A DNA stretch of 64,000 nucleotides from Candidatus Beckwithbacteria bacterium (lineage in GTDB: Bacteria; Patescibacteriota; Microgenomatia; UBA1400; UBA1449): contig JAAZOH010000040.1 of the NCBI GenBank assembly GCA_012797845.1, positions 57,072 to 121,071 on the forward strand. The letters are read 5' to 3'. A program made the position numbers and the translations under genes. A model generated the notes under the pieces. It saw nothing but the letters and a program-made list of their open reading frames with translations. It did no database searches and was not told where the DNA came from. Position 1 is the first letter of the stretch. Every line of letters begins with the position of its first letter. Shown here in pieces: positions 24,866 through 55,464 of this stretch.

Positions 24866-25855
24866 TTATAATATCCTACCACTTCCAGTTAAGATAATAA
24901 TTAAAGCTACCATTACAAATAAAGATAAGTGCACAAAACTTTTTCCGGTTCTTCGGATGGTGCCCCGATGCCAAATCAAAATTCCATCAATTACCAAAAC
25001 AACGATAATAATGAGTGTCAGAGCCAGATTAACGCTTTTAGTCAGATCAAATGAGGAAAACGCAGGAATATGATCTAAACTAACTGATTCAAGTAATGTT
25101 TCCGGGAACAAAGTTTTGATTTGCGTATTTGCTGGTTCTTGTTGTTTGACTTCTTTGATATCTTCTACCACTTCATCAACTGGTTCCGCCACAGCAACAA
25201 CCGGTTCTTCAGTAATGGGTTTAACTTGAGGTTCAATTTGTACCCCCTGTACAGATTCAGCAGCTGCCTGTTCAGGGATAGCAGCAACTGCTGTTGATGG
25301 TGCTCCAAAGTGCTGAACCACTAAAGTCGTTTCCTGGCCATTTAAGAGTCCATTAACTACTGCTACTCCAATTTGGGTATAACGACCAGACATAATATTA
25401 TCTTTATGGGTTTGAGATTCCATCCAAGCTGCCACCACAGCTCCGGAGTCATTAAAATCTCGGGCTAAGTTTTCTCCAGCATACAGATAGGTATAGCCAG
25501 CTTGCTTAAAAAAAGACCAAGGACTAGTTCCATCAGGGGCTGTGTGGGCCCAATAATTATTGGCAAACATATGAGCTGCTTTATACCTGGCCGAAGTAGC
25601 TAATGTTTCATTAAATTCTAGGGCTGGCAAACCAGCTTCAGCTCGTTTCTGATTGGTCATTGAAACAATATCACCCACAGAAATATTTGAGGCATATCCT
25701 AAAACCCCAGGTTTAACTTGAGAAATCCCAGAAATTAAAAGCTGGAAAAAAAGAATCAGTAAAACTAGTTTAGAAAGCGATTTATGGTGAAGAATTTTAG
25801 CACGATGATTATTGCCGTGATGAGGAAAAAACAAATTATGTAGATGCCGCTTCAT
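24866..25855 (-). CDS. CAP/SCP/PR1-like (YkwD-type) domain protein with signal peptide and C-terminal membrane anchor.
   Basis: NYWAHTAPDG...YLYAGENLARDFN...AAWMESQTHKDNIMSGRYTQIGVAV carries the CAP domain signatures. A hydrophobic C-terminus is present. Confidence 0.7.
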   Translation of the reverse strand: MKRHLHNLFFPHHGNNHRAKILHHKSLSKLVLLILFFQLLISGISQVKPGVLGYASNISVGDIVSMTNQKRAEAGLPALEFNETLATSARYKAAHMFANNYWAHTAPDGTSPWSFFKQAGYTYLYAGENLARDFNDSGAVVAAWMESQTHKDNIMSGRYTQIGVAVVNGLLNGQETTLVVQHFGAPSTAVAAIPEQAAAESVQGVQIEPQVKPITEEPVVAVAEPVDEVVEDIKEVKQQEPANTQIKTLFPETLLESVSLDHIPAFSSFDLTKSVNLALTLIIIVVLVIDGILIWHRGTIRRTGKSFVHLSLFVMVALIIILTGSGRIL

Positions 25856-28957: not shown

Positions 28958-31123
28958 TTATTTTTCCTGCCAAGGAAATGTAATAGTACTTGTCCCAATT
29001 GATGTATCACCATCTTTATATAGTAAATCAATGCTTACAGTTCCGATACCCGTGTGGGCTACACAAGTCAAAAGCTCATCAGAACACGTTCCTAAAAAGA
29101 TCGGATCCAAAATGAGTTGGTTTTGATTGAGTGGCTTATAGGCTTTTCCTTTAATTGTTTCTTCTACTGGTTCATTGCTATACAGATGGTGATAGGAAAT
29201 TGCATAGTCAAGTTCATCAAATCCCCAAGCATTACTAAAGCCAATTAGTAAATAGCTATCCTCTTGGTCTACGGAAACTGAGATATGGCTATGAGGGTTG
29301 GTCCCGGGATTAGGTGTTGCTAATTCTATCCAATCTGAAGGACTATCGGTATCAAAACCTAATGGACTTCTAGCTATTGAATGGCCTTCGGCCACTGCTA
29401 AAGTCCAATCAGGATACAAATGCGGAAAATTATTTGAACATGTTCCGCCATCACAAGAACCTTGTTCCCAGGCTACAAAATCAACAATTTGATCATCACT
29501 GTTTCTAAGTGTTAGCTGGTCACCGTCATTATTAAGCCAAGCTGCAGCACCAGCAAGTTGCACTATCACTGCCCCATTATCGCTAAAGCAATGAATCCAG
29601 GTCCCATTATCATGAGATAAAAGTGCAAAACCATAGGCTGGTATCTCAGGATTACCAGTGATTGTGACCGAACCGGCGTTATCGCTTAAGCTCCAATTTT
29701 TAATATTGACTGCAAAATTATTGGGATTATATAGCTCAATCCACTCACTACTGGCTTCATCGCAGTGAGTAGTATTGGCTACATCATAGTACACCTCATT
29801 GATTACGATTTTAGTAAACTCAGGTCCTGCTGGTATTTTGTGATTACCAAAATCAATATCTTCATAAAGATCTGGACCTGGGAATACGTAGTATTTACTA
29901 CTTGGCATAGTTTGCTGCCAACCGGTTTGGTTTTCTTCAGCCACTACGATTTCGCCATCAACATTGCTCAAGTCTAGTTCATACAGACCATCGGTATCAG
30001 TAATATCAGAACTTACTACTTTAAAGATAGTGACATTTAAATTACCTGTGTTGTTTGTATACAGAATGTCATATATTTTGAAGTTGACCGAAGCCCCAGT
30101 TCCAACCAAACTAGTCCAGTATTCGTGATCACTAGCATAAGGCCCCCAATCAGGAGATGCGCCATCAATTTGTAAATCAAGCAATTCGTATCCATAAGAT
30201 TCCAAACCATTAACTGTATCTGTCCAGTTGGTATCTGGGTTGCGGACTGAGTATTTGGCATCTGCCGTCAAATCGGTATCAGCTTGGTAAGTCCCGGTAA
30301 CCCTCACTAGATATGTAGCTCCATTTTCCAAAACTTCAGAATCTATGCCTGTATTATCATCGGCTGGAACACTAAGTTCCTCAACTTCCTGAGCCGCAAA
30401 AATGTTCCAACCTTCCAAACCTGGTTCAGCTTCATCTTTATCACCATTGCCATCCAAATCATTAAATTTCATGCCAGTTACTTTAGCCCATGACCCGGTT
30501 GAAACACTATTTGCTAAGATTTCTTCATCCCAAAAAGCCTGCCCATAGCTATGCTGCTGCATCCAGGCTTTCGCAACGTATGAAAAATTACAGCTTAAAT
30601 TTCCTAGATTCGGATTCGGATCATCAGGTAAAGAGACCTGATATTCAAACCAATGTTGAGCTAAACCATAATCCGGATTTGGGTAGTAATCAGCAGTAGG
30701 AAAAGATAAATCACCATCTAAACCATTTGTATTAATACTAAAGTCAACCAAAGAACCAGAGTATTTGTTTGTAATTTGTAAAATCCCATGCAAATCATAG
30801 TATTTTAGAAGAACTTCCAAATGCAGGTTTTGGCAAAGCGTTTCGTCACCACTATCAAACTGGTATTTTTGACTGTAAATAAACGGTAAAGCTCCAATTT
30901 GATTAATTAAAGCGCTGCGGGAAGATTCCTTATCAGGCATAAGCAGAGCTGGTTCAAAACCAGTTTGGACTGAATTAAAACCTAAATCTAAATTAGTAGT
31001 TCTAAAAAAATTATCTGAAGATTTTTCTTGATCACTAAATAGCGCTCCAGAAACCGGTAGGAGATACAGATTCAACAAAATGCTTATCAAACACGCTCTA
31101 GTTAAGAAGCTCAAAAGTCTCAT
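28958..31123 (-). CDS. Large secreted protein containing a lamin-tail domain (LTD).
   Basis: Signal peptide present. IVINEVYYD...SSEWIELYNPNNFAVNIKNWSLSD is the LTD signature (INE...EWIEL.N....V.L.GW.L.D). Confidence 0.6.
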   Translation of the reverse strand: MRLLSFLTRACLISILLNLYLLPVSGALFSDQEKSSDNFFRTTNLDLGFNSVQTGFEPALLMPDKESSRSALINQIGALPFIYSQKYQFDSGDETLCQNLHLEVLLKYYDLHGILQITNKYSGSLVDFSINTNGLDGDLSFPTADYYPNPDYGLAQHWFEYQVSLPDDPNPNLGNLSCNFSYVAKAWMQQHSYGQAFWDEEILANSVSTGSWAKVTGMKFNDLDGNGDKDEAEPGLEGWNIFAAQEVEELSVPADDNTGIDSEVLENGATYLVRVTGTYQADTDLTADAKYSVRNPDTNWTDTVNGLESYGYELLDLQIDGASPDWGPYASDHEYWTSLVGTGASVNFKIYDILYTNNTGNLNVTIFKVVSSDITDTDGLYELDLSNVDGEIVVAEENQTGWQQTMPSSKYYVFPGPDLYEDIDFGNHKIPAGPEFTKIVINEVYYDVANTTHCDEASSEWIELYNPNNFAVNIKNWSLSDNAGSVTITGNPEIPAYGFALLSHDNGTWIHCFSDNGAVIVQLAGAAAWLNNDGDQLTLRNSDDQIVDFVAWEQGSCDGGTCSNNFPHLYPDWTLAVAEGHSIARSPLGFDTDSPSDWIELATPNPGTNPHSHISVSVDQEDSYLLIGFSNAWGFDELDYAISYHHLYSNEPVEETIKGKAYKPLNQNQLILDPIFLGTCSDELLTCVAHTGIGTVSIDLLYKDGDTSIGTSTITFPWQEK

Positions 31124-31159: not shown

Positions 31160-31621
31160 TTAATTTTCGTCAAAAACAACTAATTCAGCAGGAAACCCTA
31201 GGGTTGTCGAAATACCGCCTACTGCAATTCTAAATCTATTAACTAAATTACTATCTTCAAAAAAACCTAAATAACCTAAGGCTTCCATTGCTGCACTTAC
31301 TGCTGGTCTAAATTTCTTATCTAGGTTAGCTAGACCATCTAATCCTTCACTACAATTAAACTTATTTATTTGTCTCTTACTCGCTCTAGACTCATGAGCT
31401 AAATTACAGAGAATCCAGGCTGATAATAATTGACGTGCTTTTTGTCTTTGGATTTCTTCCATAGCTCCTACAGGGATTTCATCAAGCCCTGCAGCTGAAG
31501 CTGCTGATTCCTGTACATCAAACGACCTTGCCAAAGGTAATCCCACTGTCCCTTCTCTTCCACCTGCTTCCATAGCAGCTTCTTCAACATGCGATGGAAC
31601 TAACTCAGTTCTTTCTCTCAT
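31160..31621 (-). CDS. Hypothetical soluble protein.
   Basis: 153-aa ORF with no signal peptide. The N-terminus is Ala/Glu-rich. Confidence 0.25.
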   Translation of the reverse strand: MRERTELVPSHVEEAAMEAGGREGTVGLPLARSFDVQESAASAAGLDEIPVGAMEEIQRQKARQLLSAWILCNLAHESRASKRQINKFNCSEGLDGLANLDKKFRPAVSAAMEALGYLGFFEDSNLVNRFRIAVGGISTTLGFPAELVVFDEN

Positions 31622-33293: not shown

Positions 33294-34607
33294 TTACCTA
33301 TCTGACTCTAAACAGGTATTAACTTGTACAGCATCTACTGCATCCAAATCATAGCCATCAGCATCACTTTGGCTAAAATCAGCCGGATTACTAGTATCAA
33401 CAATCCGGACAAATTTGACCCAATCAAAACCTGATCCAGAGATATCAACATAAGATACTCCAGAACTACTATCATGATTGCTAATCGTGCCAATATAGAC
33501 GAAACTATTCCCATCCTGACTTACAAAAATATCAGCTGTTTCATTGGGGTAACTAGATCGGCCATTGGTCACCTCATGGAAAGAAATGTCTCCGGCACTT
33601 ACATTCGCAGTATCGTCAACAATCGGATTAGCAAAAGACACAGTAATTTGGCCGCCAAAACCAAGGCTGACAAAATTGCCATCCAGTGCTCCCTCAACTG
33701 AAGCTGGATTGCTTCTATTAGCTAAAACCGGTGTTCCATTTTTACGTAAACCCTGCACTAGGGTAAAAGCCTGATCAGCATAAACCGAATCTTCAATACA
33801 AGTCGGACAAACAAAGCTGTCATTATGCCTGGCTTGGAAAATATTAAAAACCACGTCTGCCATAACTCTGTCTGTCTGAGCTAAATTAAGATCAGCTGTG
33901 CCATCACAAATCACCCCTGGGTTAACTGTGGGATCTTGGCCAACTGCTACTGGTGCTTTTGTTAGTGTCCCAAAGCACCAGGCTTTACCGATAAAATAAT
34001 CTTGATTACCAGCTTGCAATGGTCCGCTACCATCCCAAAGATTGTGACTTGCATCAGCTAAAGTCCATTTGCCATTGTTTATCAAAGTATAAGCCGATCC
34101 TTCAAACAATATTTTATCTAGTTCGTTATTTTCCAAAACATTGTCACCATCATCAGCCCAGAAAATCATATTGAGATTTTGAGCCAGTTCTCCATCCCAA
34201 AGATCCTCTGTATCCTCGCTGTCTCCAGCCGTCAGTTCTGGTTCATTTGCTGTGTTTTCATCATTTTGAGTTAGTGTGATATCCATACACGCCCAAGCTG
34301 GATTGTCTGCTACATGCAAGCTAATAGTATCCTCACCTAAATCCCCTGGTTTAAGATCATGAAAATCAAAAAAGAGTTGGTTGGTAAGATTAGTTAGTTC
34401 CCAAGTAGTGCTCTCCATAAGTTCTAATCCACCATCTACTGAAAAACCATTGTAGTAACTATGATTATCAACTTTTAAGTCAATTGTCCCAGCTGTCAGT
34501 GAGTTGCCAGTTGAAGTTTCAGTGTCTGAAAAATAAGCAGATGTAGCTACTACTCCAACGATTGCTACAAAACTTAGCGTTAACAGGCTTAAAAAAATTT
34601 TTTTCAT
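33294..34607 (-). CDS. TasA/CalY/camelysin family fibre protein (long paralog) with SipW-cognate signal peptide.
   Basis: N-terminus ...VGVVATSAYFSDTETSTGNSLTAGTIDLKV. The first ~150 aa are collinear with the upstream paralog, and a ~150-aa C-terminal extension is added. Confidence 0.65.
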   Translation of the reverse strand: MKKIFLSLLTLSFVAIVGVVATSAYFSDTETSTGNSLTAGTIDLKVDNHSYYNGFSVDGGLELMESTTWELTNLTNQLFFDFHDLKPGDLGEDTISLHVADNPAWACMDITLTQNDENTANEPELTAGDSEDTEDLWDGELAQNLNMIFWADDGDNVLENNELDKILFEGSAYTLINNGKWTLADASHNLWDGSGPLQAGNQDYFIGKAWCFGTLTKAPVAVGQDPTVNPGVICDGTADLNLAQTDRVMADVVFNIFQARHNDSFVCPTCIEDSVYADQAFTLVQGLRKNGTPVLANRSNPASVEGALDGNFVSLGFGGQITVSFANPIVDDTANVSAGDISFHEVTNGRSSYPNETADIFVSQDGNSFVYIGTISNHDSSSGVSYVDISGSGFDWVKFVRIVDTSNPADFSQSDADGYDLDAVDAVQVNTCLESDR

Positions 34608-34680: not shown

Positions 34681-34702
34681 AAAAAACCAGCACGTGTGCT
34701 GG
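34681..34702 (-). terminator. Rho-independent terminator after the sortase gene.
   Basis: On the minus strand the sequence reads ccagcacacgtgctgg followed by TTTTTTG. That is a 7-bp stem, a 2-nt loop and a T-run. Confidence 0.45.
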
Positions 34703-34903
34703 CTTATGATGTAAGACCTTTGTGGCCAAGATTGTATCTGGTAGTGTAGCTATTTTGCATGCTTTAGCAGTATTTTTTTGTACTGCATAAAAAGATTTCC
34801 ACAGCTTTTAGCAATTTTAAAGTAACGATTTTCTATACACTTGTCAATATGCATTTTGAAAATTATAGCTAACTCAATTATAGTTATAGGTTGCGAATAA
34901 GAA

Positions 34904-35461
34904 TTATAGGGAAGATTGTGGTTTAGCTACCACCACTAAGCGCTTTTGGTCCCAGAAACCAGTACAGGTATATAACGTCAATCGTTGATCTTTACTTTGA
35001 TCCAGCACTTCAGCTTGATTAGAAGAAACTACTCTAATACTTTGAATAGTAAAATTTTGTACTGACTTATCGGAAAATTGGATAGTTATAGTCTGACCAA
35101 CTTTAGCTTTATTAAGATTGCCAAGCAGACTATTCCAGTTGTGACCATACAAAACACTATTACCCATTTGTCCAGGTAGTGGTGTATCCAAAAGGTAGAC
35201 AATTCCTTGGCTAGGCGCACTCCAATGGCTATCAGCAAAGCTCATTGCTTGTACAGCAACATCTATATCCAAAGCTGAGATTTGCAGTCTAACGGGAAGT
35301 TTGGAGGTATTTTGAGTAGTAGTTGTATTTTGAACTAGCTGAGTATTAGTAAAACTTAGTTTGGCCGGCACATACTTTTGCCACAGCAAATAGCCCGCTG
35401 TCATTAGAAAACAAAAGCCAATGATTAAAAAAACTTGAGAAGGTTTTACAAAACTGCTCAC
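34904..35461 (-). CDS. Sortase (transpeptidase).
   Basis: N-terminal TM anchor, His in LYGHNW, catalytic Cys in LTLYTCTG (TLxTC motif), and a downstream conserved Arg. Size 185 aa. Confidence 0.7.
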   Translation of the reverse strand: MSSFVKPSQVFLIIGFCFLMTAGYLLWQKYVPAKLSFTNTQLVQNTTTTQNTSKLPVRLQISALDIDVAVQAMSFADSHWSAPSQGIVYLLDTPLPGQMGNSVLYGHNWNSLLGNLNKAKVGQTITIQFSDKSVQNFTIQSIRVVSSNQAEVLDQSKDQRLTLYTCTGFWDQKRLVVVAKPQSSL

Positions 35462-35471
35462 AAGCTAAACC

Positions 35472-36368
35472 TTAACGGACTGATTTTTTATGCAAGACCC
35501 AGCTGCCAGCAAAACTTAATCCCGCTAAACCTAAGAGCATAGCAATTTCATCAGTTGTTCCAGTATCAGCTAAGCCTAAAATAGCTCCACCAATACCGGT
35601 TGAATTGTCGTACCAGGAGCTGCTGGTTCCTAAAATTGAACCGCCACCAATACCGCTATCGCAAATTAGCGTATCAATGTAAACAGCTTGATTAGGGAAA
35701 TTGTCTTCTGCTTCAGCTTCGATTGAGCCTTCACCACTATGGCTATAAGAAACACTGGCTCGACCGTCTTTATTGGTATGGGCAATTTGCCGCATACCAC
35801 GGTAAATAAAGGTAACCTTAACTCCTTCAACTTTATTGCCGTTTTCTCTGGCATCATAAGTCACTTCAATAGCACTATCTTCACAAGTCGGCCCGTTTTT
35901 ACCCATACTAGAGTGTTTACCACCATCTGGATTAGGCGTACTAGTTGGGGTTGGTTTGGGACCACTGCCACAATCATAGTACTGGTTTTGGGCCAGATAT
36001 GGAGCTTGGGATAATCCCCAAACTTCCCCATTGGGCACATAATACCAACCTTGTTTTCTAAAAGCGTTAATATCATCTTGAGAAAGATCACCAATTTGCC
36101 ACCAATTAGTTTGAGTGCCATTGCCACCTTCTGGACAAAAGCATTGAATCAGTAGATCCGAACTAACTTGATAGACCTGATCAGAACCATGGTTATCAGT
36201 AATAACTCCCACAATGCCGTGCAAACCATCACTATAATTTGCAATAATTTCTCCTCTAGGACTAGCACATGATGGAAAATCTGGAGCAGAAACTGCTAAG
36301 GCTTTTTGAGCAAAAAAGGTAAATAGAAGAATAAAAAAACTGCCCAAAGTAATAATTTTTTTCAACAT
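35472..36368 (-). CDS. Secreted sortase substrate with an LAxTG-type sorting signal (LADTG).
   Basis: Signal peptide present. The C-terminus is ...GLADTGTTDEIAMLLGLAGLSFAGSWVLHKKSVR. That is a motif, then a hydrophobic stretch, then a positively charged tail. It is immediately upstream of the sortase gene. Confidence 0.55.
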   Translation of the reverse strand: MLKKIITLGSFFILLFTFFAQKALAVSAPDFPSCASPRGEIIANYSDGLHGIVGVITDNHGSDQVYQVSSDLLIQCFCPEGGNGTQTNWWQIGDLSQDDINAFRKQGWYYVPNGEVWGLSQAPYLAQNQYYDCGSGPKPTPTSTPNPDGGKHSSMGKNGPTCEDSAIEVTYDARENGNKVEGVKVTFIYRGMRQIAHTNKDGRASVSYSHSGEGSIEAEAEDNFPNQAVYIDTLICDSGIGGGSILGTSSSWYDNSTGIGGAILGLADTGTTDEIAMLLGLAGLSFAGSWVLHKKSVR

Positions 36369-36474: not shown

Positions 36475-37728
36475 TTAGAAGTTATACTCTTTTTTAAAAA
36501 GACTGCTAATAAATTCTGTAATGCTTTTTTTGAGACGAAACAACCAATCTTCGCGATGTTTTCGCAGGATTATGGTCATGGGCTGGCTGCGGTAAGCTAA
36601 ATTAACCGTTTGACTATCATAACCATCAGCAGAAATAGTCAGCGTAGGATTGCTCTCTAAAAACGGCAGGATAAATTGACCGTCACGACCAGTTACTATA
36701 TGAAAGTACGGGCTGGTCACAGCTACACTATCTAACTTATCACCTGTTATATCTTTAACTACACCACTGGCGACTTGCGGCTGAAAGTATTTTGTCAAAA
36801 CAGTAACTGCAGACCTAGGTCTACCATCTTCATACCAAAGTTGGGTTGAACTGCCAGTATTGGCCCAGTAATTTACACCAATAAGTTCTGGAGTTTCAGC
36901 TAAAGCTAACATGGCAGTATCCAGCCATTCCGCCTGTTCCTGCTCAGACATATCACCATGCAAATCAGGAATAGGAGCACCAAATTCTCCTAAAACGATT
37001 TTTCCACCCGTAGCTTGGGCATACCTGCGAATATCATCAGCTAAACGCTTCGGGCTTTCCACATAGTGGTCAATCACCACAACTCCATCTAAGGCTTTAG
37101 TAGTTTCAGGATCCATAATCAGCATGGCCACATCTCCATTCATGGAAAAGTAGTTGGTCTTAACATCTTTACCGATACTCTCAAAAGCTGTCTGGCTAAT
37201 CTTATATTCATTAATAAGAAAATTGCGGAAGCCTTCAACATCTCCGGTTTTTCTGGGATCACCCGGTCCACCATTCTCACATTCTGGACAAGAGCTAAAA
37301 ATATCACCATCTTTAAACAGCCCTGGGTTGTCTTCAATAAATTGCTTGGTTTTAGCTAAGTGTTCTTCCCGGCTAATGCTAGGGTATTCAAACCAGCCCT
37401 CCCAACCGGCCCAATTACCCCGAAACCAAACGTTCAATTGGTACTTTCGCGCAGCTGTCACCCAACGTTTTAAAATAGGTAAAAATTCCACATCATAGGG
37501 GGTAGCAATAGCTACATGAGTAGCTCCGGTTTTGGCAATATTGCTGATCTGGACATCAATAACCATATCAAAATCCCGATCACCTAATTTTTCCCGAGCT
37601 TTATCACGGGAGTATTTCATGGTATCAACCGACTGCACCTGCCACCAGGGAACTTCATTATCAGCGTAAACTGGTTGGGGAAACAGTAAAAATAGACAGA
37701 TGATTAAGCTAATTAGAATCTTTTTCAT
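36475..37728 (-). CDS. Secreted glycoside hydrolase, GH5-like TIM-barrel.
   Basis: Signal peptide. NVWFRGNW...LINEY (candidate acid/base NE) and KIVLGEFG (candidate nucleophile Glu in a GEFG context) resemble clan GH-A. Start trimmed to MKKILISL. Confidence 0.45.
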   Translation of the reverse strand: MKKILISLIICLFLLFPQPVYADNEVPWWQVQSVDTMKYSRDKAREKLGDRDFDMVIDVQISNIAKTGATHVAIATPYDVEFLPILKRWVTAARKYQLNVWFRGNWAGWEGWFEYPSISREEHLAKTKQFIEDNPGLFKDGDIFSSCPECENGGPGDPRKTGDVEGFRNFLINEYKISQTAFESIGKDVKTNYFSMNGDVAMLIMDPETTKALDGVVVIDHYVESPKRLADDIRRYAQATGGKIVLGEFGAPIPDLHGDMSEQEQAEWLDTAMLALAETPELIGVNYWANTGSSTQLWYEDGRPRSAVTVLTKYFQPQVASGVVKDITGDKLDSVAVTSPYFHIVTGRDGQFILPFLESNPTLTISADGYDSQTVNLAYRSQPMTIILRKHREDWLFRLKKSITEFISSLFKKEYNF

Positions 37729-37732
37729 AGCT

Positions 37733-39364
37733 TTACAATTGATTGGCCTCCGGATTACCCAACAGGCGGGGCACATATTCAGGCTTGAGTTCGTAAATAT
37801 CGGCAAATGGATACTTAGCCATCAGCTTATATTTTTTAAAACCACTGGTCTTACTGACTAGCTTATAGGTTAAATCATTATCATCATAGGTGCGCAAAAT
37901 AATCCAACGAACCCAACGATCCGGATAAGCTGTAGCATCCAGCCAGTAATCACCCGTCCCTTCATGGATAAAGCGCCGCATCGGTAAACCAGAAGAAAAG
38001 ATGATAGCATCATGAGAAGCAGCCGAAATCAGAATCAAACCTGGATTATCATAAGTTCTGGATTTGAGCCAACCAGATACCTCGCTGACATTTTTCTGAG
38101 AAGAACCAACCCTGGCATCATCTATAGTCACTGCATCATGATTGACTATAGCAAAGAAACTAACCATAAGTAGTAAGCCAATATAAACCCATTTCAGCTG
38201 TTTAGCCCGGTCAACTAAATAGCCAAGATAAATTGCAATAGAAGGCATCAGCATGACTCCATACCGGACATTAAACCAGGTATTGCCGGAAATACCTTGG
38301 ATAAAAAGAACTGAGTGGCCAAAAAATAAAGCAATGATATTGAAAAAAAGTGGAGCCAGTAAAGCAATACTTGCAATCTTGACTTCGCTTTTAAGCTTTT
38401 TATCAAACCAAAACCATATTGCTCCCACAAAACCTAACAGCGCCGGAATAGTGTATGAATTGTAAAAAAGGGCATAGAGATACACTTTTACAGATAAAAG
38501 TAGATTATGTTGGGTGGGTAAATTCCCGGCTGCTTCCAGCTGCTTTTGCTGAGCTCGGGCTGAGAAAGGCCCAAAAGCAAAGTAAAGGGCGTCTTTAAAA
38601 ATCAATTGGTTCCAGAGTAGCCATAAAAAAATCCCAAAAGCAGCCAGAGTACAAAACATAATCACGATACCTTCTGTGGTTTTATAGCCTTTTTTCCGGT
38701 ATACCTGAAAGGCAATTAAAATGGTCGAAACAAACAGTAAAAACCAGCCGTCGTAACGAATTAACGTTGATAGCATTATCCAAAATGAGGCTTTTATCAG
38801 TTCCAGCAATCGATTAGTTTGGAACCAACGTAGCAGATAGTAGGCACCACCTGTCATGGTTCCTAAAAGCAGAAGCTCGGTCATAGCAGTTGACTGCAAA
38901 TATAAAACATTTAAATTAGCCGCCCAAATAAAAACTGCCACCAACCTACCCAATAAACCAACTTTTATTTTTTGCAAAAACAGATAGATGATAATTCCGG
39001 TGGCCACATAGGCAATCATAGATTGCAAAGCTCCAGCTAACCCTGAGTGCCACATAAAATCACTCCAGACGGTGGGCACCATCAGCAAATGTGGCAACGG
39101 TAACCAAACCGAACCCAGTTGAGCTAATCCTGGTTTAAGACCTTCAACTACCCTTCGCCCAATATCCAGATGAGACCGAGCGTCATTGTAAGCAATACCA
39201 AGACCGTTATAGTAGTATGTCCAAAAAGTAACTATAGCTGTAATCGTTAAAGCTAAGGCTATAACCACTAAAGCATACTTATTCACTATCAGTTCGGCTT
39301 TTTTAAGCCAGGATTTTGGTAATGAAAAGCTAATGGTTTCTGGTATAAGCTTATTTTTTTTCAT
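37733..39364 (-). CDS. GT-C fold membrane glycosyltransferase (ArnT/PMT-like).
   Basis: 543-aa polytopic membrane protein. The N-terminal loop YNDARSHLDIGRRVVEG resembles the D-x-R-H-type first-loop motif of GT39/83 enzymes. Confidence 0.4.
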   Translation of the reverse strand: MKKNKLIPETISFSLPKSWLKKAELIVNKYALVVIALALTITAIVTFWTYYYNGLGIAYNDARSHLDIGRRVVEGLKPGLAQLGSVWLPLPHLLMVPTVWSDFMWHSGLAGALQSMIAYVATGIIIYLFLQKIKVGLLGRLVAVFIWAANLNVLYLQSTAMTELLLLGTMTGGAYYLLRWFQTNRLLELIKASFWIMLSTLIRYDGWFLLFVSTILIAFQVYRKKGYKTTEGIVIMFCTLAAFGIFLWLLWNQLIFKDALYFAFGPFSARAQQKQLEAAGNLPTQHNLLLSVKVYLYALFYNSYTIPALLGFVGAIWFWFDKKLKSEVKIASIALLAPLFFNIIALFFGHSVLFIQGISGNTWFNVRYGVMLMPSIAIYLGYLVDRAKQLKWVYIGLLLMVSFFAIVNHDAVTIDDARVGSSQKNVSEVSGWLKSRTYDNPGLILISAASHDAIIFSSGLPMRRFIHEGTGDYWLDATAYPDRWVRWIILRTYDDNDLTYKLVSKTSGFKKYKLMAKYPFADIYELKPEYVPRLLGNPEANQL

Positions 39365-40940
39365 GGTATGCCTGCCAATATAGTAACCCTGCTAAACCAC
39401 CACTAATCCAAACTAAACATGTTGCAATAAGTAAATAGTACTGAGTTGCACTAAGATAAGTATGGCCCCAAGTTTGATATACAAAAGATTTTGATTGGTT
39501 ACTTTGCAAAAATTCCCAACTACGTAAAAAGTTGTAGTGTTCAACTCGGCCCGAAAGTTTTTCTAAAGCGAGCACTTCAACCTTGGGAGGAATAGCACTG
39601 CTGGTGATAGCTCCCAATGTATTGATATAAATTGAGTATGCCATTACTGGCAAAAAGATGATTAAAAACCAAGGTTTATGTTTAAAATAATCAACTAGAT
39701 AAGCAATGCCAATAGCTAAAATGGCATAGCCTGGCACCAGATAACGCGAACCAAAAGCCCAACCACCCCAGGGATCACCCCAAAGTGAATACAGAGTTAG
39801 ATTAACCCCAACTATAGCAATCAATACAGCTGCTATATATGGTTTTTTCAAAAAAAGCAGCCAAAGCCCCAAAGCCCCAAAAAACATAATAGGGGTAAAC
39901 CATAAGATACTGCGATCAGAACCAATAAGGTGGGTATAGAGTCCATTTACTAAATTTCTGGTTTTGAAAAAACCAACTGCTGATTTTTTTTGCAGTTCGG
40001 GATTAAGGTACGTTTGCATATCTAAAGTCCCAATTTCAGTTGGCGTGGTTGGCTTCCCTTGCTCATCAATAGCATTAACACTGGAAACCGTCCCGGAAAA
40101 CTGGAAGGGATTGCCATAGGATTGCTGATTGAACCACATAAAAAAATATAGTGGCAATACAACAGTAGCAATAGATAAAATACCGGGTAACCATAGAGAA
40201 ATTTTGACTTTAGCTCTCCCTGGACTAATTATTAACAATCTTCCAGCTGCAAATAGAGCAATCGGAAACATCAAGAATAAATTTGGGTAATCAATAGGAA
40301 TGGCGGCGGCGGCCAAAAACCAAATCAAGCCTAGCGACCACCAGGTTTTAAATTTGATGAGCAAATAGAGACTGGCTAATATTAGAAACGTTGAAATATG
40401 GTGTTGGAAAAACGAAACTCCATACACAAAGGCTGGAGTAGCAAAGAGGAAAATCAAACCTCCCAATAAAGCAGCCAGCTTTGGCACACCTAAAAGTCGG
40501 GCAATAGCTTGGATTAAAATCAGGTTTAAAAGTGCAAAAAGCGCCACAATCGCATAGGTACCAATTTGAGCAGCTCCAAACAACTTTCCTACCATATAAC
40601 CAGGAGCTGTCATAAAAGAAACCCCGGGAGCAAACATGGAAACGTAGTGTCCATTTTTATAGCCTAAATCAGGCGTAGCAAACCGGGCCACCGGCAGGGA
40701 AAAATAAAATGATTTGTCTTCAACCAGCGAGTAAAGCAAGGCAAAGCGACCTCGCTCTGGTGAAAGCTCCAATGGTCCTTTATCTGTCCAGTAAGCACTG
40801 GTCAACTCCTGAGCGACTGGATTACCAAGCCTGCCTCGCAAGGCTAAAACAATAGTTAAACATGCTAGGGCTAAAACGAAAATGGTAATAAAATCAATTT
40901 TTTTAAACATAAGTAAAGTATAGCAAGTGAATAAGGTCAC
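39351..40940 (-). CDS. Polytopic membrane protein, putative GT-C/YfhO-like glycosyltransferase.
   Basis: 529 aa with >10 TM helices. It is operonic with GT and deacetylase genes. No decisive motif. Confidence 0.3.
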   Translation of the reverse strand: MTLFTCYTLLMFKKIDFITIFVLALACLTIVLALRGRLGNPVAQELTSAYWTDKGPLELSPERGRFALLYSLVEDKSFYFSLPVARFATPDLGYKNGHYVSMFAPGVSFMTAPGYMVGKLFGAAQIGTYAIVALFALLNLILIQAIARLLGVPKLAALLGGLIFLFATPAFVYGVSFFQHHISTFLILASLYLLIKFKTWWSLGLIWFLAAAAIPIDYPNLFLMFPIALFAAGRLLIISPGRAKVKISLWLPGILSIATVVLPLYFFMWFNQQSYGNPFQFSGTVSSVNAIDEQGKPTTPTEIGTLDMQTYLNPELQKKSAVGFFKTRNLVNGLYTHLIGSDRSILWFTPIMFFGALGLWLLFLKKPYIAAVLIAIVGVNLTLYSLWGDPWGGWAFGSRYLVPGYAILAIGIAYLVDYFKHKPWFLIIFLPVMAYSIYINTLGAITSSAIPPKVEVLALEKLSGRVEHYNFLRSWEFLQSNQSKSFVYQTWGHTYLSATQYYLLIATCLVWISGGLAGLLYWQAYHEKK

Positions 40941-45231: not shown

Positions 45232-48200
45232 TTAGGCTTTTATAATCTCAATAAGTTTTTGACTGCTTTTATCCCAACTAAACTGCCCAGCCCATTTCTG
45301 AGCTTCTTGCTCCATTCTGGTCCTCAGTTTTTTCTTAGTCAAAAGCTGGGTAATTTTCTGAGCAAAAGCACCGCTATCACCATGAGGAACTAAGTAACCG
45401 GTATGGGGATTAGAAACGGAATCCCGCAAGCCAGGGACATTGGCCGCCACTACTGGGGTACCACAAGCATTGGCTTCAATGACCGAGATACCCCACCCCT
45501 CCATTGAAGACGGATAAGCAAAAACCCAAGACTCTGTTAGGAGTTTGTATTTAGCTTCTTCACTAACTTTACCTACAAAAGAAACAGTGTCTTGCAAATG
45601 AAGTTTTTTAACCAGTTTTTTGAGCTGTTTTTTATGCTCTCCAAAACCGGCAATAGTTAGCTTTGCTTTAGGCTGTTTTTGTTTAATCTCTACCATCGCT
45701 TCAATAAGTGTATCTATTGATTTATATGCTTTTAATCGGCCCAAATACAGGATTGATGGGTAGGAAGTTTTTTTGCTATTTTTGGGACTGCAAACTGTCA
45801 CCCCTGGATTGATAATGGCAATTTGATGTTTTTTGCCCAGACCAATTTTGATCATGTCTTTTTTAGAAGACTCGGACACCGTGATCATTTCCACATTACG
45901 ATACACCCAAGGCATCAGTTGGCTTTCTAAAAAGGTAGCTAGCATGGCTGAAAAGGGGTTGAGGTTTTTACGAAAAACTTCTTGATGCACATGATGAACT
46001 AAGCCAACAATCGGTTCTTTGGCATACAGTGGCGTAAAAAAGGGAATGCCATTTTCACCGTCAATAATCACATCATATTTACCTTTAAACCGAAATAGGT
46101 AGTAAAAGAATGCCCAAATGTAGACAGTATAAAAACCACCCCGCCTGACAATATGGACACCGTCAATGGTTTCAAACTTAGGATTGTGGTGATCATTACC
46201 ACAAAAAACTGTCACTGTGTGGCCTTTTTCCACCAACTGTTTGGCAATTTCATGGACATAAACCTCAGCTCCCCCAGCCCAAATATGCTTGGTATCACGC
46301 CAGTTAAAAATCAAAATCTTATAGCTATCAAGCTTCTTTTTTTCTGGAGCAGGAACAGATAAAAACAGCCCTAAAAAATCAGTGATATTTCCCCAAATAG
46401 TCGGCAAGGCATCAGCAAAAATATGCAGAAAAGCCATGGCTGACAAATTGGCCAATCCCACAATAGCCATTACCCAAACAATTTGACTCACACTACTATG
46501 AAACAAAACAATGCCAAAAATTTGCACCAAGGCAAACATAAAATTGACAGTTGGGAAAAGGTGCTTATTCCTAGCCTGATGGAAGGTGGCAATAATATTG
46601 GCCACCGTGAAGTAAAAGATAGCAATGCCGTAAATTGGCAAAAGTCCAACTACCGGAACTATTTTACTACCCAAGAGTAATGGTGTGGTGTATTTACCCA
46701 ACAGACCAACAAATAGGTAGGCTAATAAACTTACTCCACTGGAAAGATAAAAAAGCTTATAAAAAATTGGTTTACTGGCTTTACTCTCCCCCTCAGCTTT
46801 ACTCACAATCGGTAAAACAAACTGGCTAAACAGGCTGCCAATCATGTAAATCATTTTGCCCACCAAAGCTACTAGGGCATAGTGACCAGCGTCACTAGGT
46901 GAAAGATAATGTTTGGCTAAAATTACGTCAAAGCTCAAAAAAGCTACAGATGAAAATTTCAATAAAACTGAACTTGAGAAAAATTTAACTGGAAATTTGT
47001 ATAAAGCCGGGCTTTGTTCAATGTGCTTCTCCTTAGTTTTTTTGGCTGCATACCACCCAACTAGAAACGAAACAGCCATAGATAAGGGAATCGCCATATA
47101 AACCCAATGCTCAAAACCAAGTTGAACTAATAACACGGTGAAGACTAATTTACTGGTAGCTTCAGCTGCAACCATAAAAGCTAAAGTTTTAAATTGTAAA
47201 ATTCCAGACAAATAACCACTATCAACTGCTGCTACCGTGCCAATAAACCAAATTGGGGTAAATAGTATAAACGGGATGACACTTGAGGAATTAAAGTAAT
47301 GACTGAGAAAAGGCGTAGTTAATAACCACAGAGCCGTCAAAGCTAAACCGATATAAACTACCTTGCTACGAATGTGAGCCCAGTAGCTTTTGATAGCCGT
47401 TTGATACTTACCAAAATAGTAGGCACTTTTATTGGTAATAGTCCGGGATAAACCGCTTAGAGGAATAGCAGATAAAAACAGGAAGTTGCCCATCAGGCTC
47501 ACTAAACCAAAACTTTCCAAAGAAATAGTTCTAGATAGATAGGCGTTATAGAGAAAATTCAGCACATTACCCAACATGGAGGCAGCCACTAAAATCCCAC
47601 CCGATACCGCATCAGTGCTTATTAAAAATCCAAATCTGCGGCCAATAAAACTTTGCCTATCAACTGATTCAACTTGCTGTTCCGCTTGAGCCTCGGCCTG
47701 TTCCTGTTGCTGTCCTAAATGCAAACCGTGAATGGTTTTTTCCCAGTAGTACGGTTTGACTATAAACTGCCATAGGGCTTTTACTGCCGCTAGGCTTACC
47801 ATCAACCAGTACACAGGAATCAAAAAGACAAATTTGACCAGTTGCCACTGTTCTCGCTTGGCACAGCCAATCATGTAATAGTAGATAAATAAGAAATTAC
47901 CAAAAATCAGTGAAGTCATAGCCATGTAAAAAATTGAGGCCGGATAGAGGGATTCGATAGTCGGACCAACGATGGCGTAGAGCGAAAAGTAAGCAATTGT
48001 TGCTAACCATAAAATCGGATTAATGAGCATGAAAGCAATTTTGCCCCCCACTACCAATTGAAAAATAAAAGCATGCCAACTCTGATTTTTGACAAACTGA
48101 ACCGGGTGACGCATGTGAACAAAGTAAGTTTGGATATAGCCTTTAATCCATCGGGATCGTTGCCTAAACCAATTGCCTACTTTACTATTAGCCTCCTCAA

Positions 48201-49842
48201 GAGTTGTCGAATCAATCATGGCAGTTTTAAAACCTTCTTTAAAAAGCCTTACGCCCAAGTCACAATCTTCAGTCACATTGAAAGCATCCCAACCCTGCAG
48301 CTTTTGCAATTCTTGAGTACGGAAATGGTTGCTGGTACCGCCAAGGGGAATAGTGGTATCTATTGACTGCAAACCGGACAAGGTAATATCAAACCAAAGC
48401 GAATATTCGGCTGTAAACAGCCTGGTGAGAATATTTTGCTCAGGATTGTAGTAGTTAAGTTTGGCCTGCAAACACTTGACGTCATCCGAAGCTTTATTAA
48501 AAGCAAGATAGGCTTTTTTAAGCTGCAATGGATCAGGTTGGTCTTCTGCATCATAGATAACCAAAAATTCACCAATAGCCTGCTTAAGACCATAATTACA
48601 AGCTTTGGGTTTTGTTTTAGGTTGGGAATGAGGGACAACAATAATTCTGACATAATCAGGCAAATTTAGTTTCTCGGCAGCTTCAATCGTAACCCTGTCA
48701 TCCTCTTCCAAAAGCAACTGGACATCAAGTTTATCCTTGGGCCAATCAAGCTTAGCAATTGATTTCAAAAAGTGTGGCAAAACATGAGCTTCTTTGTATA
48801 GCGGACAAAGAATGGTGTAGATGGGTAAAAGCTCTGGTTTTAAAGCTTGAATTTCTGCTTGGCTAACTGAAATTTCTGGCGGGAAATGGAGACTTTTTAA
48901 AATTAAATAGAGATTAAATAAAACATCAATAAAATAGATTGAGCTTAAAATCGCAACCACTACTTTTAATGTCTGAATAGGATTTAGGCATATGCCCACA
49001 GCCACTGAAGCCAAAATTAGAAATATAGTCAATTTTTGCCAATGCTTCAAGCTTGTAATAGCTGATTGATGTAATTCTAACTGTGTATGAGTAGTAAACC
49101 GTCTCCGTTTATAGCCAATTACACCCTCTTTATTTTGATCAATATACAAAGGCTTGACGTGATGAAGACGCTGCCAAATCGACAAGCTTAGTAGTTCAAA
49201 ACTGGCTGAAAATAACTTTGATTTCCGGTTACCGTGTTGGCGTCCATGATAAGGTACTTCCACAGTTCCAATACTAAAACCTGCCTCAACGCTCCTACGG
49301 ACAAATTCTAGATCAAAGCTCCAATTCCCTGGCTTAATTTCAATATGATCAATAATTTTCTTTTTAAAAACTTTAATACCGGATTGAATATCAACCTGTA
49401 GATTAAATAGTAATGTACCAAAAATAAATTTATACAAAGAAGCTAGTAGCTTTTTACCAACCCGCTGTTTGTTTTGATATTTCCTACTACCTATAACTAA
49501 ATCATATTGCTTTATGCTTTCAGCTAGTTCTGGAATTATTTCGGGAGGATACGCTAAATCAGCGTCAATAAAACCAATAGTCTGGTATTTGGCAGCCTTA
49601 ATTCCCACCCAAACAGCTTTACCTTTCCCAGAAGATTCTTTCCTAGTTATTATTTTAAAAGGATATTCCTTATTAAGATTTTTCAAAACTTTTAAACTTT
49701 TATCGGTTGAATGATCATTGACAACAATAATTTCGAAATGCCTAAAATTTTTTTGAAGAGTTTCCAACAACCTGGGGATTAAAACAGGAAGACTTTCCTG
49801 CTCATTTTTTACTGGAATGATAATACTAATCGAAGCTAGCAT
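45232..49842 (-). CDS. Giant 1536-aa multidomain glycan synthase fusion. Domain order: GT2 (DPM1-like), processive GT2 synthase (QxxRW), polytopic Wzx/MOP-like membrane domain, then GT4.
   Basis: N-terminal SIIIPVKNEQE...VVNDHSTD (first GT2). Central IYDAEDQPD...TEDCDLG...QRSRWIKG (cellulose-synthase-like D,D,D,QxxRW). Residues ~aa 600-1100 are hydrophobic and helix-rich. The C-terminus LTESWVFAYPSSMEGWGISVIEANACGTPVVA carries the GT4 EX7E motif. Confidence 0.7.
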   Translation of the reverse strand: MLASISIIIPVKNEQESLPVLIPRLLETLQKNFRHFEIIVVNDHSTDKSLKVLKNLNKEYPFKIITRKESSGKGKAVWVGIKAAKYQTIGFIDADLAYPPEIIPELAESIKQYDLVIGSRKYQNKQRVGKKLLASLYKFIFGTLLFNLQVDIQSGIKVFKKKIIDHIEIKPGNWSFDLEFVRRSVEAGFSIGTVEVPYHGRQHGNRKSKLFSASFELLSLSIWQRLHHVKPLYIDQNKEGVIGYKRRRFTTHTQLELHQSAITSLKHWQKLTIFLILASVAVGICLNPIQTLKVVVAILSSIYFIDVLFNLYLILKSLHFPPEISVSQAEIQALKPELLPIYTILCPLYKEAHVLPHFLKSIAKLDWPKDKLDVQLLLEEDDRVTIEAAEKLNLPDYVRIIVVPHSQPKTKPKACNYGLKQAIGEFLVIYDAEDQPDPLQLKKAYLAFNKASDDVKCLQAKLNYYNPEQNILTRLFTAEYSLWFDITLSGLQSIDTTIPLGGTSNHFRTQELQKLQGWDAFNVTEDCDLGVRLFKEGFKTAMIDSTTLEEANSKVGNWFRQRSRWIKGYIQTYFVHMRHPVQFVKNQSWHAFIFQLVVGGKIAFMLINPILWLATIAYFSLYAIVGPTIESLYPASIFYMAMTSLIFGNFLFIYYYMIGCAKREQWQLVKFVFLIPVYWLMVSLAAVKALWQFIVKPYYWEKTIHGLHLGQQQEQAEAQAEQQVESVDRQSFIGRRFGFLISTDAVSGGILVAASMLGNVLNFLYNAYLSRTISLESFGLVSLMGNFLFLSAIPLSGLSRTITNKSAYYFGKYQTAIKSYWAHIRSKVVYIGLALTALWLLTTPFLSHYFNSSSVIPFILFTPIWFIGTVAAVDSGYLSGILQFKTLAFMVAAEATSKLVFTVLLVQLGFEHWVYMAIPLSMAVSFLVGWYAAKKTKEKHIEQSPALYKFPVKFFSSSVLLKFSSVAFLSFDVILAKHYLSPSDAGHYALVALVGKMIYMIGSLFSQFVLPIVSKAEGESKASKPIFYKLFYLSSGVSLLAYLFVGLLGKYTTPLLLGSKIVPVVGLLPIYGIAIFYFTVANIIATFHQARNKHLFPTVNFMFALVQIFGIVLFHSSVSQIVWVMAIVGLANLSAMAFLHIFADALPTIWGNITDFLGLFLSVPAPEKKKLDSYKILIFNWRDTKHIWAGGAEVYVHEIAKQLVEKGHTVTVFCGNDHHNPKFETIDGVHIVRRGGFYTVYIWAFFYYLFRFKGKYDVIIDGENGIPFFTPLYAKEPIVGLVHHVHQEVFRKNLNPFSAMLATFLESQLMPWVYRNVEMITVSESSKKDMIKIGLGKKHQIAIINPGVTVCSPKNSKKTSYPSILYLGRLKAYKSIDTLIEAMVEIKQKQPKAKLTIAGFGEHKKQLKKLVKKLHLQDTVSFVGKVSEEAKYKLLTESWVFAYPSSMEGWGISVIEANACGTPVVAANVPGLRDSVSNPHTGYLVPHGDSGAFAQKITQLLTKKKLRTRMEQEAQKWAGQFSWDKSSQKLIEIIKA

Positions 49843-54540: not shown

Positions 54541-54577
54541 AGCGTATCTGTCAACTATTAGCTACTAACTACTTGTG

Positions 54578-55456: not shown

Positions 55457-55464
55457 AAATATAG

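Follow-up and report, generated by a model that had tools for sequence, protein, structure and literature searches.

A compact sortase and the protein encoded directly before it on a contig of Candidatus Beckwithbacteria (CPR, Microgenomates) probably constitute a dedicated sortase-cargo pair of the Microgenomates, in which the cargo would be cut at a LADTG motif and anchored to the cell wall. The stretch of DNA analysed, referred to here as the window, is 64 kb long, and the CPR host that the initial annotation had raised as a possibility is borne out. Both ORFs lie on the minus strand, the sortase (185 aa, GTG start) at 34904-35461 and its cargo (298 aa) at 35472-36368, with the sortase GTG 10 nt past the cargo stop codon. 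A stringent six-frame scan of the window returned a single credible ORF with a sorting signal, and this ORF adjoins the sole sortase of the window. We use ‘dedicated’ in the sense of one sortase with one cargo, on the basis of 20-kb loci and the 64-kb window. In principle the pair is a variation on a well-known means of anchoring, the combination of a tripartite signal with a Cys transpeptidase being textbook.

Judged by predicted fold, catalytic triad and profile matches, the product of 34904-35461(-) is a true member of the sortase superfamily (PF04203, MEROPS C60). The Pfam sortase domain PF04203 is matched at 79.2 bits against a cut-off of 26.6, and TIGR01076 at 43.2 bits against 39.35. 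An AlphaFold model (pLDDT 86.5), searched against the PDB with Foldseek, returned sortases as all of its top 50 matches (E 1e-10 to 4e-9, probability 1.00), and model and matches together place an eight-stranded sortase β-barrel in the 185-aa protein; lack of a sortase fold in structure prediction, named in the initial annotation as a possible refutation, is thus not what we find. The chain runs from an N-terminal membrane anchor (aa ~7-30, modelled as helix 7-30) through a linker to the catalytic β-barrel (aa ~55-181). In the translation, His107 lies in LYGHNW (codon 35141-35143), Cys166 in TLYTC (codon 34964-34966) and Arg174 is encoded at 34940-34942, and all three are invariant in alignments of homologues (26/26 and 82/82). 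The original description of a minimal sortase with a transmembrane anchor and these His, Cys and Arg residues therefore agrees with Pfam, model and alignment alike. The public gene call (P0001) has 166 aa and begins at an internal ATG, with loss of the membrane anchor; we favour the 185-aa reading because homologues align from residue ~8 on.

The LAxTG-type motif had been taken to imply kinship with class E sortases, and here the evidence points elsewhere. When NCBIfam class HMMs were run on the window sortase and 26 family members, no class reached its cut-off and none stood out. Class F gave the highest score of all class models for the window sortase (NF033748, 48.1 bits against a cut-off of 166), with the class GN ‘marine’ model (TIGR03784, 42 against 158), class C (NF033745, 36.5 against 160) and class E (NF033747, 29.8 against 160) below it, and classification by HMM over classes A-F thus leaves the enzyme in no class. 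Across the 26 family members, the class E model matches 21 at all, with a best E-value of 5e-14. The best matches in a PDB profile search were B. anthracis SrtA (2kw8), C. perfringens SrtD (4d70) and C. diphtheriae SrtA (5k9a), and class-E structures ranked low (5utt at 40.6 bits, 5go5 at 25 bits). Tyr229 of SrtE1 has been equated with Phe92 of CpSrtD (PMC5148588); by profile alignment with CpSrtD (4d70; ‘gvsyl’ vs ‘NIGHF’), this class-E Tyr of the β3/β4 loop (S3 subsite) corresponds to Leu90 of the window sortase, in a column with Leu in 76 of 82 homologues, though the adjacent Tyr89 is kept in 70/82 and a one-residue shift of the loop alignment is possible. The ~21-aa β6/β7 insertion of class E is absent: alignment with 2kw8 (class A) and 4d70 (class D) needs no large gap between β6 and TLYTC, and the only element modelled between strands 134-146 and 159-167 is a short helix (150-153). 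As for the LAxTG signal that marks class E, the link here is through genomic association only, in 66 of 69 adjoining cargos. On the HMM score, the missing Tyr and the missing insertion, membership in class E is rejected. With all three of these class-E features wanting, the LAxTG preference seems to have arisen separately from that of actinobacterial class E, and by sequence the enzyme appears to be part of a Microgenomates-wide clade of compact (~180 aa) sortases outside classes A-F and GN. The lack of the features proposed for recognition of Ala at P3 in class E counts against such a preference.

The cargo opens with a Sec signal peptide (MLKKIITLGSFFILLFTFFAQKALA, then cut before VS; 36294-36368, minus strand), followed by a conserved four-Cys N-domain (35964-36293, minus strand), an S/T/P-rich linker with a poorly modelled β-rich module (aa ~150-240), and the C-terminal sequence GGAILG-LADTG-TTDEIAMLLGLAGLSFAGSWVL-HKKSVR. 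The pentapeptide (residues 266-270) is encoded at 35559-35573(-), and the hydrophobic segment with its basic tail at 35475-35558(-), modelled as helix 272-297; cleavage is predicted between Thr269 and Gly270. Read from the sequence, the parts of a tripartite signal are all in place (signal peptide, pentapeptide, ~20 hydrophobic residues, basic tail), and pentapeptide, hydrophobic segment and tail are each conserved among cargo homologues. LADTG forms part of an extended consensus, (V/I)LG-LAxTG-(N/D), with L266, A267, T269 and G270 kept in 69-71 of 73 locus homologues. Translation and homologues thus uphold the sorting signal first proposed for this protein, and the objection foreseen at that point, that LADTG might not be conserved in orthologues, is answered by the conservation of LAxTG among them. 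In the wider cargo family, 112 of 148 representatives carry an xxxTG signal, including 83 LAxTG, 16 FAxTG and 7 LPxTG, and those lacking one are mostly truncated fragments. The curated LPXTG-anchor HMM gave no match to the cargo at E<=0.01, as expected for an Ala-for-Pro variant. For the N-domain, which is modelled with confidence, no relative was found among solved structures, making it an orphan fold.

The arrangement recurs beyond the window: of 75 related loci, 69 have a cargo homologue as the immediate upstream neighbour of the sortase, in the same orientation and with a median gap of 7 nt, which argues against chance pairing. Every one of these adjoining cargos (69/69) ends in (L/F)(A/G)xTG, 66 of them in LAxTG and none in LPxTG. 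Five loci without the cargo family have another protein with LAxTG(N/D), a transmembrane segment and a basic tail directly upstream of the sortase. There are also two in-frame cargo-LAxTG-TM-sortase fusions (L015 and P0269), which are independent of each other and only 37% identical, and some loci (L049, L060) have a second, divergent sortase. Gene-order conservation among related lineages may derive in part from shared ancestry. Conserved adjacency and motif together support the initial proposal that the neighbour is the substrate of the sortase.

The pair would form the last part of a co-directional block, whose conserved upstream context comprises glycosyltransferases (GT2/GT4), two polytopic membrane proteins of 529 aa (39351-40940) and 543 aa (37733-39364), and a secreted orphan protein of 417 aa (36475-37728), all three on the minus strand and in the fixed order m529-m543-p417-cargo-sortase. 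The 417-aa partner precedes the pair, in the same orientation, in 48 of 65 loci, and homologues of the 543-aa and 529-aa proteins in 47/80 and 44/80, respectively. The 417-aa protein, for which the ORF list gives 443 aa with a TTG start at 37806, consists of a ~300-aa core without known relatives and a CarboxypepD_reg-like β-sandwich; in Pfam, NCBIfam and PDB profile searches only this C-terminal domain was matched. Database matches to the protein fall in more than 2,400 clusters (50-59% identity), exclusively hypothetical proteins of Microgenomates/Patescibacteria. Its motifs CENGG and GEFG give the impression of a clan GH-A-like glycosidase, and a Glyco_hydro_cc match in 2 of 30 family members (E 0.035) is too weak for use. 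A GT39/PMT identity was considered for the two polytopic proteins and is unsupported: the 543-aa protein has no Pfam, NCBIfam or PDB match, and the 529-aa protein, likewise unmatched in Pfam and PDB, reaches 30.8 bits with the NCBIfam LA_3751/LA_3752 putative glycosyltransferase family, far under the cut-off of 200. True PMT_2 proteins are present elsewhere in the window. The genes of the block probably serve to build or decorate one envelope structure; any glycosylation, like the function of the cargo, is something that we infer.

Under the mechanism that we propose, Sec would export the cargo, with cleavage of the signal peptide between ALA and VS, and the hydrophobic segment and basic tail at the C-terminus would retain the precursor in the membrane. 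Cys166, assisted by His107 and Arg174, would then attack the Thr-Gly bond of LADTG, and the resulting thioacyl intermediate would be resolved by an amine nucleophile, for which lipid II, through an amine of its stem peptide or cross-bridge, is the most likely source. This would leave the conserved N-domain covalently displayed on peptidoglycan at the tip of the S/T/P-rich stalk. No member of the Microgenomates is known to be in culture. A cell wall is plausible because the window encodes FtsEX and an M23 peptidase (peptidoglycan remodelling) and because peptidoglycan pathways in CPR are essentially complete (PMC7143001). The acyl intermediate could instead be resolved on something other than peptidoglycan, whether water, so that the cargo is set free, a glycan or lipid of the surface produced by the upstream glycosyltransferase block, or another protein such as that of an S-layer. 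Such an outcome would suit a pair that sits in a conserved glycan-type block (GT2/GT4, polytopic proteins of which one is weakly GT-like, secreted orphan), in a lineage whose envelope is poorly known and with a sortase outside the classes of known acceptor. We nevertheless hold it to be unlikely, with peptidoglycan-remodelling genes nearby, peptidoglycan synthesis encoded by CPR and nothing to indicate a specific alternative. To our knowledge, all sortases characterised so far that act on a tripartite signal pass their substrate to lipid II or a pilin lysine, which also counts against it.

The adjacency of tasA genes had been read in the initial annotation as a hint of sortase-anchored fibres. 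Downstream of the pair and on the same strand are two TasA-like proteins with SipW-type signal peptides (TIGR04088, 30.5 and 24.2 bits against 19), then SipW itself (NF046067, 124 bits; TIGR02228, 115 against 51.9). On such a reading the sortase and SipW/TasA modules would be tied, with the LAxTG protein as a wall-bound base or nucleator comparable to TapA, or with the sortase joining both. SipW is indeed enriched near the cassette: 12 of 80 loci have it no more than 10 kb away on either side, against ~2-4% expected from genome size (binomial P 7e-8 to 8e-5, uncorrected for relatedness). Two old SipW-cargo-domain fusions, L078:10548-11609 and P0328, which share 30% identity, point the same way, as does L060, where the second sortase follows an LAATG protein that has a domain in common with the C-terminus of the 437-aa TasA-like protein in the window. 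This last match (‘TasA437’) was rejected as a TasA-like protein with a sorting signal, however, as the shared domain is the non-TasA C-terminal part only. Moreover, 68 of the 80 loci have no SipW nearby, orientation is mixed where it is present (divergent, convergent, same-strand), and neither the TasA-like proteins of the window nor its 721-aa LTD protein carries a sorting signal. The cargo itself has an ordinary Sec signal with no match to the SipW-dependent type (TIGR04088), and its model gave no TasA-like fold match. The 296-nt spacer from the sortase stop to the first TasA-like gene holds a terminator-like hairpin (AAGCCAGCACACGTGCTGGTTT plus T-run, 34684-34705, minus strand); this match to consensus suggests that the cargo-sortase pair and tasA-tasA-sipW are separate transcription units, and the conserved partners of the pair lie upstream. 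The hint thus finds little backing in the wider comparison, and we doubt that SipW-dependent TasA-like fibres in Microgenomates have the LAxTG orphan-fold protein as their base on the wall, or as a tip or adaptor. If they did, one CPR surface appendage, possibly a host-attachment organelle, would combine sortase anchoring with SipW-type fibre assembly. A minimal sortase-assembled pilus, with the cargo polymerised head-to-tail in class C fashion, would fit the place of class C sortases among the closest solved structures in structural and profile searches, and the resemblance of the compact gene pair to pilus islets, but it is highly improbable: the best-conserved lysine column in the mature cargo reaches 50/73, with Gln in the window protein, and this speaks against polymerisation of the pilin type; Pfam/NCBIfam searches returned no pilin or E-box domain, there is one cargo gene only, and the sortase is short and far below the class C cut-off.

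We therefore return to a dedicated pair whose cargo is anchored to the wall, and to what it adds. A CPR sortase family (fam000526; Méheust et al. 2019) occurs in over half of CPR and is near-ubiquitous in Microgenomates, and the paper describes no substrate, LAxTG motif, class placement or conserved gene block for it (PMC6744442). While CPR sortases are thus known to be common, their cargo and signal are undescribed in the searchable literature, where we found no report of LAxTG in CPR, Patescibacteria, Microgenomates or Saccharibacteria. Together with about 80 relatives, the locus marks out a clade of compact sortases that spans the lineage and has LAxTG as the cognate signal. The clade bears on how sortases read P3 and supplies small enzymes as candidates for orthogonal sortase-mediated protein ligation. 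The loci also put a name to a near-universal, predicted covalently anchored surface protein of orphan fold and to four orphan partner genes, in bacteria whose envelope and host-attachment biology is little described.

Among known systems, class E sortases that go with LAxTG include Streptomyces coelicolor SrtE1/SrtE2, with the chaplins, and Actinomyces oris SrtA (PMC5148588). Ala at P3 in a classical tripartite signal and a single membrane-anchored, housekeeping-like enzyme are common to class E and the Beckwithbacteria pair, whereas class E enzymes have a 21-aa β6/β7 insertion and a long cytoplasmic N-tail, both missing here, and act in Actinobacteria on a regulon of substrates rather than, as in this CPR host, on one adjoining cargo. 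Sortases of classes F, D and C go with LPxTG or LPxTA signals, not LAxTG (PMC5148588). They have the β-barrel, His-Cys-Arg triad, TLxTC and N-terminal anchor in common with the Beckwithbacteria sortase, which nonetheless falls more than 100 bits under every class cut-off. The neighbours in the window recall the tapA-sipW-tasA operon of B. subtilis in that they include SipW and two proteins bearing SipW-type signals, but the B. subtilis fibre is made without a sortase, whereas the cargo here has no SipW-type signal and the adjacency is confined to 12/80 loci. Dedicated sortase-target pairs are known from the class GN sortase (TIGR03784) with its single adjoining target and from SrtB-IsdC. Sortase clade, motif and cargo differ from those found here, where the hosts are Gram-positive-like CPR, but the arrangement is the same: one sortase beside its one target, with a private variant of the motif.

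The gene at 34904-35461 (-) begins with a GTG codon 10 nt past the cargo stop codon, and its 185-aa product belongs to the sortase superfamily, as the initial annotation had proposed. It scores 79.2 bits against the Pfam Sortase model (threshold 26.6), its AlphaFold model (26 homologs as input, mean pLDDT 86.5) consists of an N-terminal helix at residues 7-30 and a β-barrel, and the best 50 Foldseek matches of that model in the PDB are sortases throughout (E about 1e-10). His107 (LYGHNW), Cys166 (TLYTC) and Arg174 are shared by all 26 database homologs and all 82 sequences of related loci. In the public annotation the protein (P0001) begins at an internal ATG, which leaves 166 aa and no membrane anchor; homologs and tblastn matches set in around residue 8, and this supports the GTG start at 35461 and the 185-aa reading.

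The 298-aa cargo (35472-36368, (-)) carries an N-terminal Sec-type signal peptide (…FAQKALA, followed by VS) and ends in …GGAILG-LADTG-TTDEIAMLLGLAGLSFAGSWVL-HKKSVR, with the pentapeptide at 35559-35573 (-) and the C-terminal tail at 35475-35558 (-), both verified by translation. In a six-frame pattern scan this was the sole credible tripartite sorting signal of the 64-kb window. The model reaches pLDDT ~95 over the cargo N-domain (aa ~26-135), which conserves four near-invariant cysteines, H50, and QTNWW, WGL and PYxAxN motifs; no Pfam or NCBIfam family was found for it, and it may, at a reasonable guess, serve as a binding module exposed on the surface. What sets the window cargo apart is an additional β-rich module in its middle, modelled with low confidence and weakly matching Big_1 (E 0.003), which also occurs in the database protein P0062. 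Most cargo homologs have an S/T/P/G-rich stalk ahead of the sorting signal. The homolog alignment contains no conserved lysine column in the mature cargo, which makes pilin-like polymerization unlikely. The window has a G+C content of 33-42%, and the databases contain an identical protein, listed as hypothetical and assigned to Candidatus Beckwithbacteria, bearing out the suspicion that the host is a CPR organism.

Scanning one genome per species gave 233 sortase relatives; the loci of 80 of these were retrieved, their ORFs called and then searched with HMMs made in this analysis. Upstream sequence was sufficient in 75 loci, and 69 of them have a cargo N-domain homolog directly upstream of the sortase on the same strand, at a median gap of 7 nt. 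All 69 adjacent cargos carry [L/F][A/G]xTG and none LPxTG; 66 have LAxTG, so that the motif read in the window substrate is indeed conserved in its orthologs. Position x is most often S (27), then A (10), T (9), F (6), N (6) and P (5), and the residue following the Gly is N in 45, D in 12 and T in seven. At L033, L034, L063, L075 and L078, which have no cargo N-domain upstream, another protein directly precedes the sortase and ends in LAxTG(N/D), a hydrophobic segment and basic residues. Cargo homologs in the databases show the same extended consensus as the loci, (V/I)LG-LAxTG-(N/D). Searched exhaustively with the N-domain alone, 1.84 billion cluster representatives yielded just 324 relatives, mostly of ~180-220 aa with the domain immediately past the signal peptide; among the best 148 of these 324, 83 end in LAxTG, 16 in FAxTG and seven in LPxTG, the remainder being mostly truncated fragments.

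The predicted enzyme–substrate pairing has support about as good as comparative genomics allows. Two in-frame cargo–sortase fusions, one at L015:9317-10558 (+) (413 aa) and the other the 378-aa protein P0269, add strong Rosetta-stone evidence for it. Both run in the order cargo N-domain, LAATG or LASTG, TM segment, basic loop, sortase anchor and catalytic domain, at just 37% identity to each other. Their topology is feasible, and the products would be self-processing sortase–passenger proteins.

Informatively labelled loci belong to Woese-, Roizman-, Levy-, Gottesman- or Amesbacteria or to 'Patescibacteria'. Many others among L002-L080 are labelled 'uncultured Gammaproteobacteria' despite a Microgenomates-type cassette, and single loci with the same type of cassette are labelled Weeksellaceae, Sulfotelmatobacter or Methylomirabilota; these labels look like placeholder or wrong taxonomy, or contaminant contigs in bins. 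In six members of the cargo N-domain family (P0242, P0246, P0249, P0271, P0286 and P0323), PC(K/R)(Y/W)(F/Y)W replaces LAxTG ahead of the hydrophobic segment and basic tail, and may be a distinct Cys-containing sorting signal. In the 640-aa protein P0184, three tandem cargo N-domains are combined with an additional β-domain and a canonical LPRTG signal, so the domain also exists in multiple copies with LPxTG-type anchoring. A second sortase of another type (ILQTC) is encoded at L049:13828-14385.

The initial annotation had associated the LAxTG motif with class E sortases; the class comparisons speak against placing the window sortase in that class. All NCBIfam class models score the window sortase more than 100 bits below their cut-offs: class F 48.1 (cut-off 166), SrtD LPxTATN 42.5 (140), class GN 42.1 (158), class D 38.9 (165), class C 36.5 (160), class E 29.8 (160) and class B 16.4 (154). 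Scores of all 26 family members are equally flat. With a family profile searched against PDB sequences, class A, D and C enzymes come first (2kw8, 4d70, 5k9a), with class E structures well down the list (5utt 40.6 bits, 5go5 25 bits). Kattke et al. proposed as class E hallmarks a conserved tyrosine in the β3/β4 loop and a ~21-aa β6/β7 insertion, and equated SrtE1 Tyr229 with CpSrtD Phe92 (PMC5148588). The profile alignment to CpSrtD sets 'gvsyl' opposite 'NIGHF', which makes Leu90 the residue equivalent to Tyr229; it is Leu in 76 of 82 sequences, with the neighboring Tyr89 present in 70 of 82, so that a one-residue misalignment of the loop is possible. No large β6/β7 gap was found in the alignment to class A and D enzymes. 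Class E identity was rejected on the model score, the low-ranked structures and the missing hallmarks. Judged by sequence, the sortase falls in none of the defined classes; it shares LAxTG with class E but lacks the hallmarks of that class, so its association with the motif appears to be independent of class E, with the proviso that the loop alignment may be off by one residue.

Upstream lies a conserved co-directional string of GT2/GT4 glycosyltransferases, a 529-aa polytopic protein (39351-40940), a 543-aa polytopic protein (37733-39364), a secreted 417-aa protein (36475-37728), the cargo and the sortase. The block of three orphan proteins (36475-40940, (-)) recurs in about 45-50 of 80 loci, usually behind GT2/GT4 genes, with homologs in fixed order (529-aa in 44/80, 543-aa in 47/80, 417-aa in 50/80). 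The 417-aa family is very large and strongly conserved, with >2,400 clusters at 50-59% identity, annotated as hypothetical throughout, and a C-terminal CarboxypepD_reg-like domain is its sole recognizable part. The ORF listing extends this gene to 36475-37806 (443 aa); the public call uses the ATG at 37728 (MKKILISL…), which also abolishes the overlap with the adjoining gene and is probably the true start. Neither polytopic protein has a Pfam or PDB match, and the sole match for either is a weak one, between the 529-aa protein and a family of putative glycosyltransferases. Nearly the entire window is an envelope and glycan region: 1-28000 and 41000-63300 encode a flippase, GT2/GT4/GT1 transferases and PMT_2-type GT-C proteins, and the window also holds a 1,536-aa multi-GT protein (45232-49842), GDP-mannose dehydratase-like, UDP-glucose dehydrogenase and RmlA/RmlD-like genes, PIG-L deacetylase, VanZ, FtsEX with an M23 peptidase (53326-56163), a DUF4012 protein (61541-63262) and a CAP-domain protein (24866-25855).

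Downstream of the sortase, a 296-nt spacer contains a terminator-like hairpin (34684-34705), past which lie two proteins with SipW-dependent-type signal peptides (TIGR04088) that match Peptidase_M73 in their N-terminal region alone, then a SipW signal peptidase and finally a lamin-tail-domain protein of 721 aa (28958-31123, (-)). None of the four carries a sorting signal. Adjacency to these tasA-like genes had been taken as a hint of sortase-anchored fibers; SipW lies within ±10 kb of the sortase in just 12/80 loci, in varying orientation, so this adjacency is not part of the core context. The part of the hint that survives is that 12/80 is above the ~2-4% that genome size would predict (binomial P 7e-8 to 8e-5, uncorrected for relatedness of the loci) and that SipW-type peptidases are fused to the cargo N-domain in L078:10548-11609 (-), where NCBIfam confirms the SipW part, and in P0328. 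Neither fusion has an LAxTG signal; the L078 gene is convergent with the sortase of its locus, and its junction (…PAYALLSDSAGLTNNTFTV…) looks to the eye like the cleavage region of a SipW-type signal peptide. The cargo–sortase pair and the SipW/TasA-like module may still be linked functionally in some way.

At L060:11816-13304 (+), a 314-aa LAATG protein is directly followed by a second, divergent sortase (185 aa, LTLYTCEG); the N-terminal domain of the LAATG protein matches the one at the C-terminus of the 437-aa TasA-like protein of the window (33294-34607). The start of the 721-aa protein (…SGALFSDQEKSSDNFF) looks SipW-type by eye, with no HMM report, and a second lamin-tail-domain protein (411 aa, 51513-52748, (-)) ends in a hydrophobic segment and basic tail without a sortase motif. 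None of the 80 loci has a homolog of the 153-aa ORF at 31160-31621 (-), which lies between SipW and the 721-aa protein; its one match, to ATP-grasp_N, is sub-threshold, and it may be no true gene.

The peptidoglycan pathway is reported to be essentially complete in CPR genomes (PMC7143001), which together with FtsEX/M23 in the window points to lipid II as the default acceptor of the sortase intermediate. Alternatively, the cargo may be released, or passed to a glycan, a lipid or another protein, since the sortase fits no class whose acceptor is known. Given that glycosyltransferase genes belong to the conserved block and that the cargo has an S/T/P stalk, one may speculate that the anchored cargo is glycosylated or works with a wall glycan.

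The near-ubiquity of a sortase family in Microgenomates was already reported by Méheust et al. 2019 (PMC6744442), and sortases receive brief mention in other papers on CPR genomes. We found no published account of the substrates, LAxTG motif, class placement, fusions or gene block in a literature coverage that was incomplete, so an earlier description is possible. The cargo–sortase system is solid and lineage-wide, and of use for studies of sortase specificity and CPR envelope biology. It works like a housekeeping or dedicated sortase, and its mechanism is conventional unless the SipW/TasA link is real.
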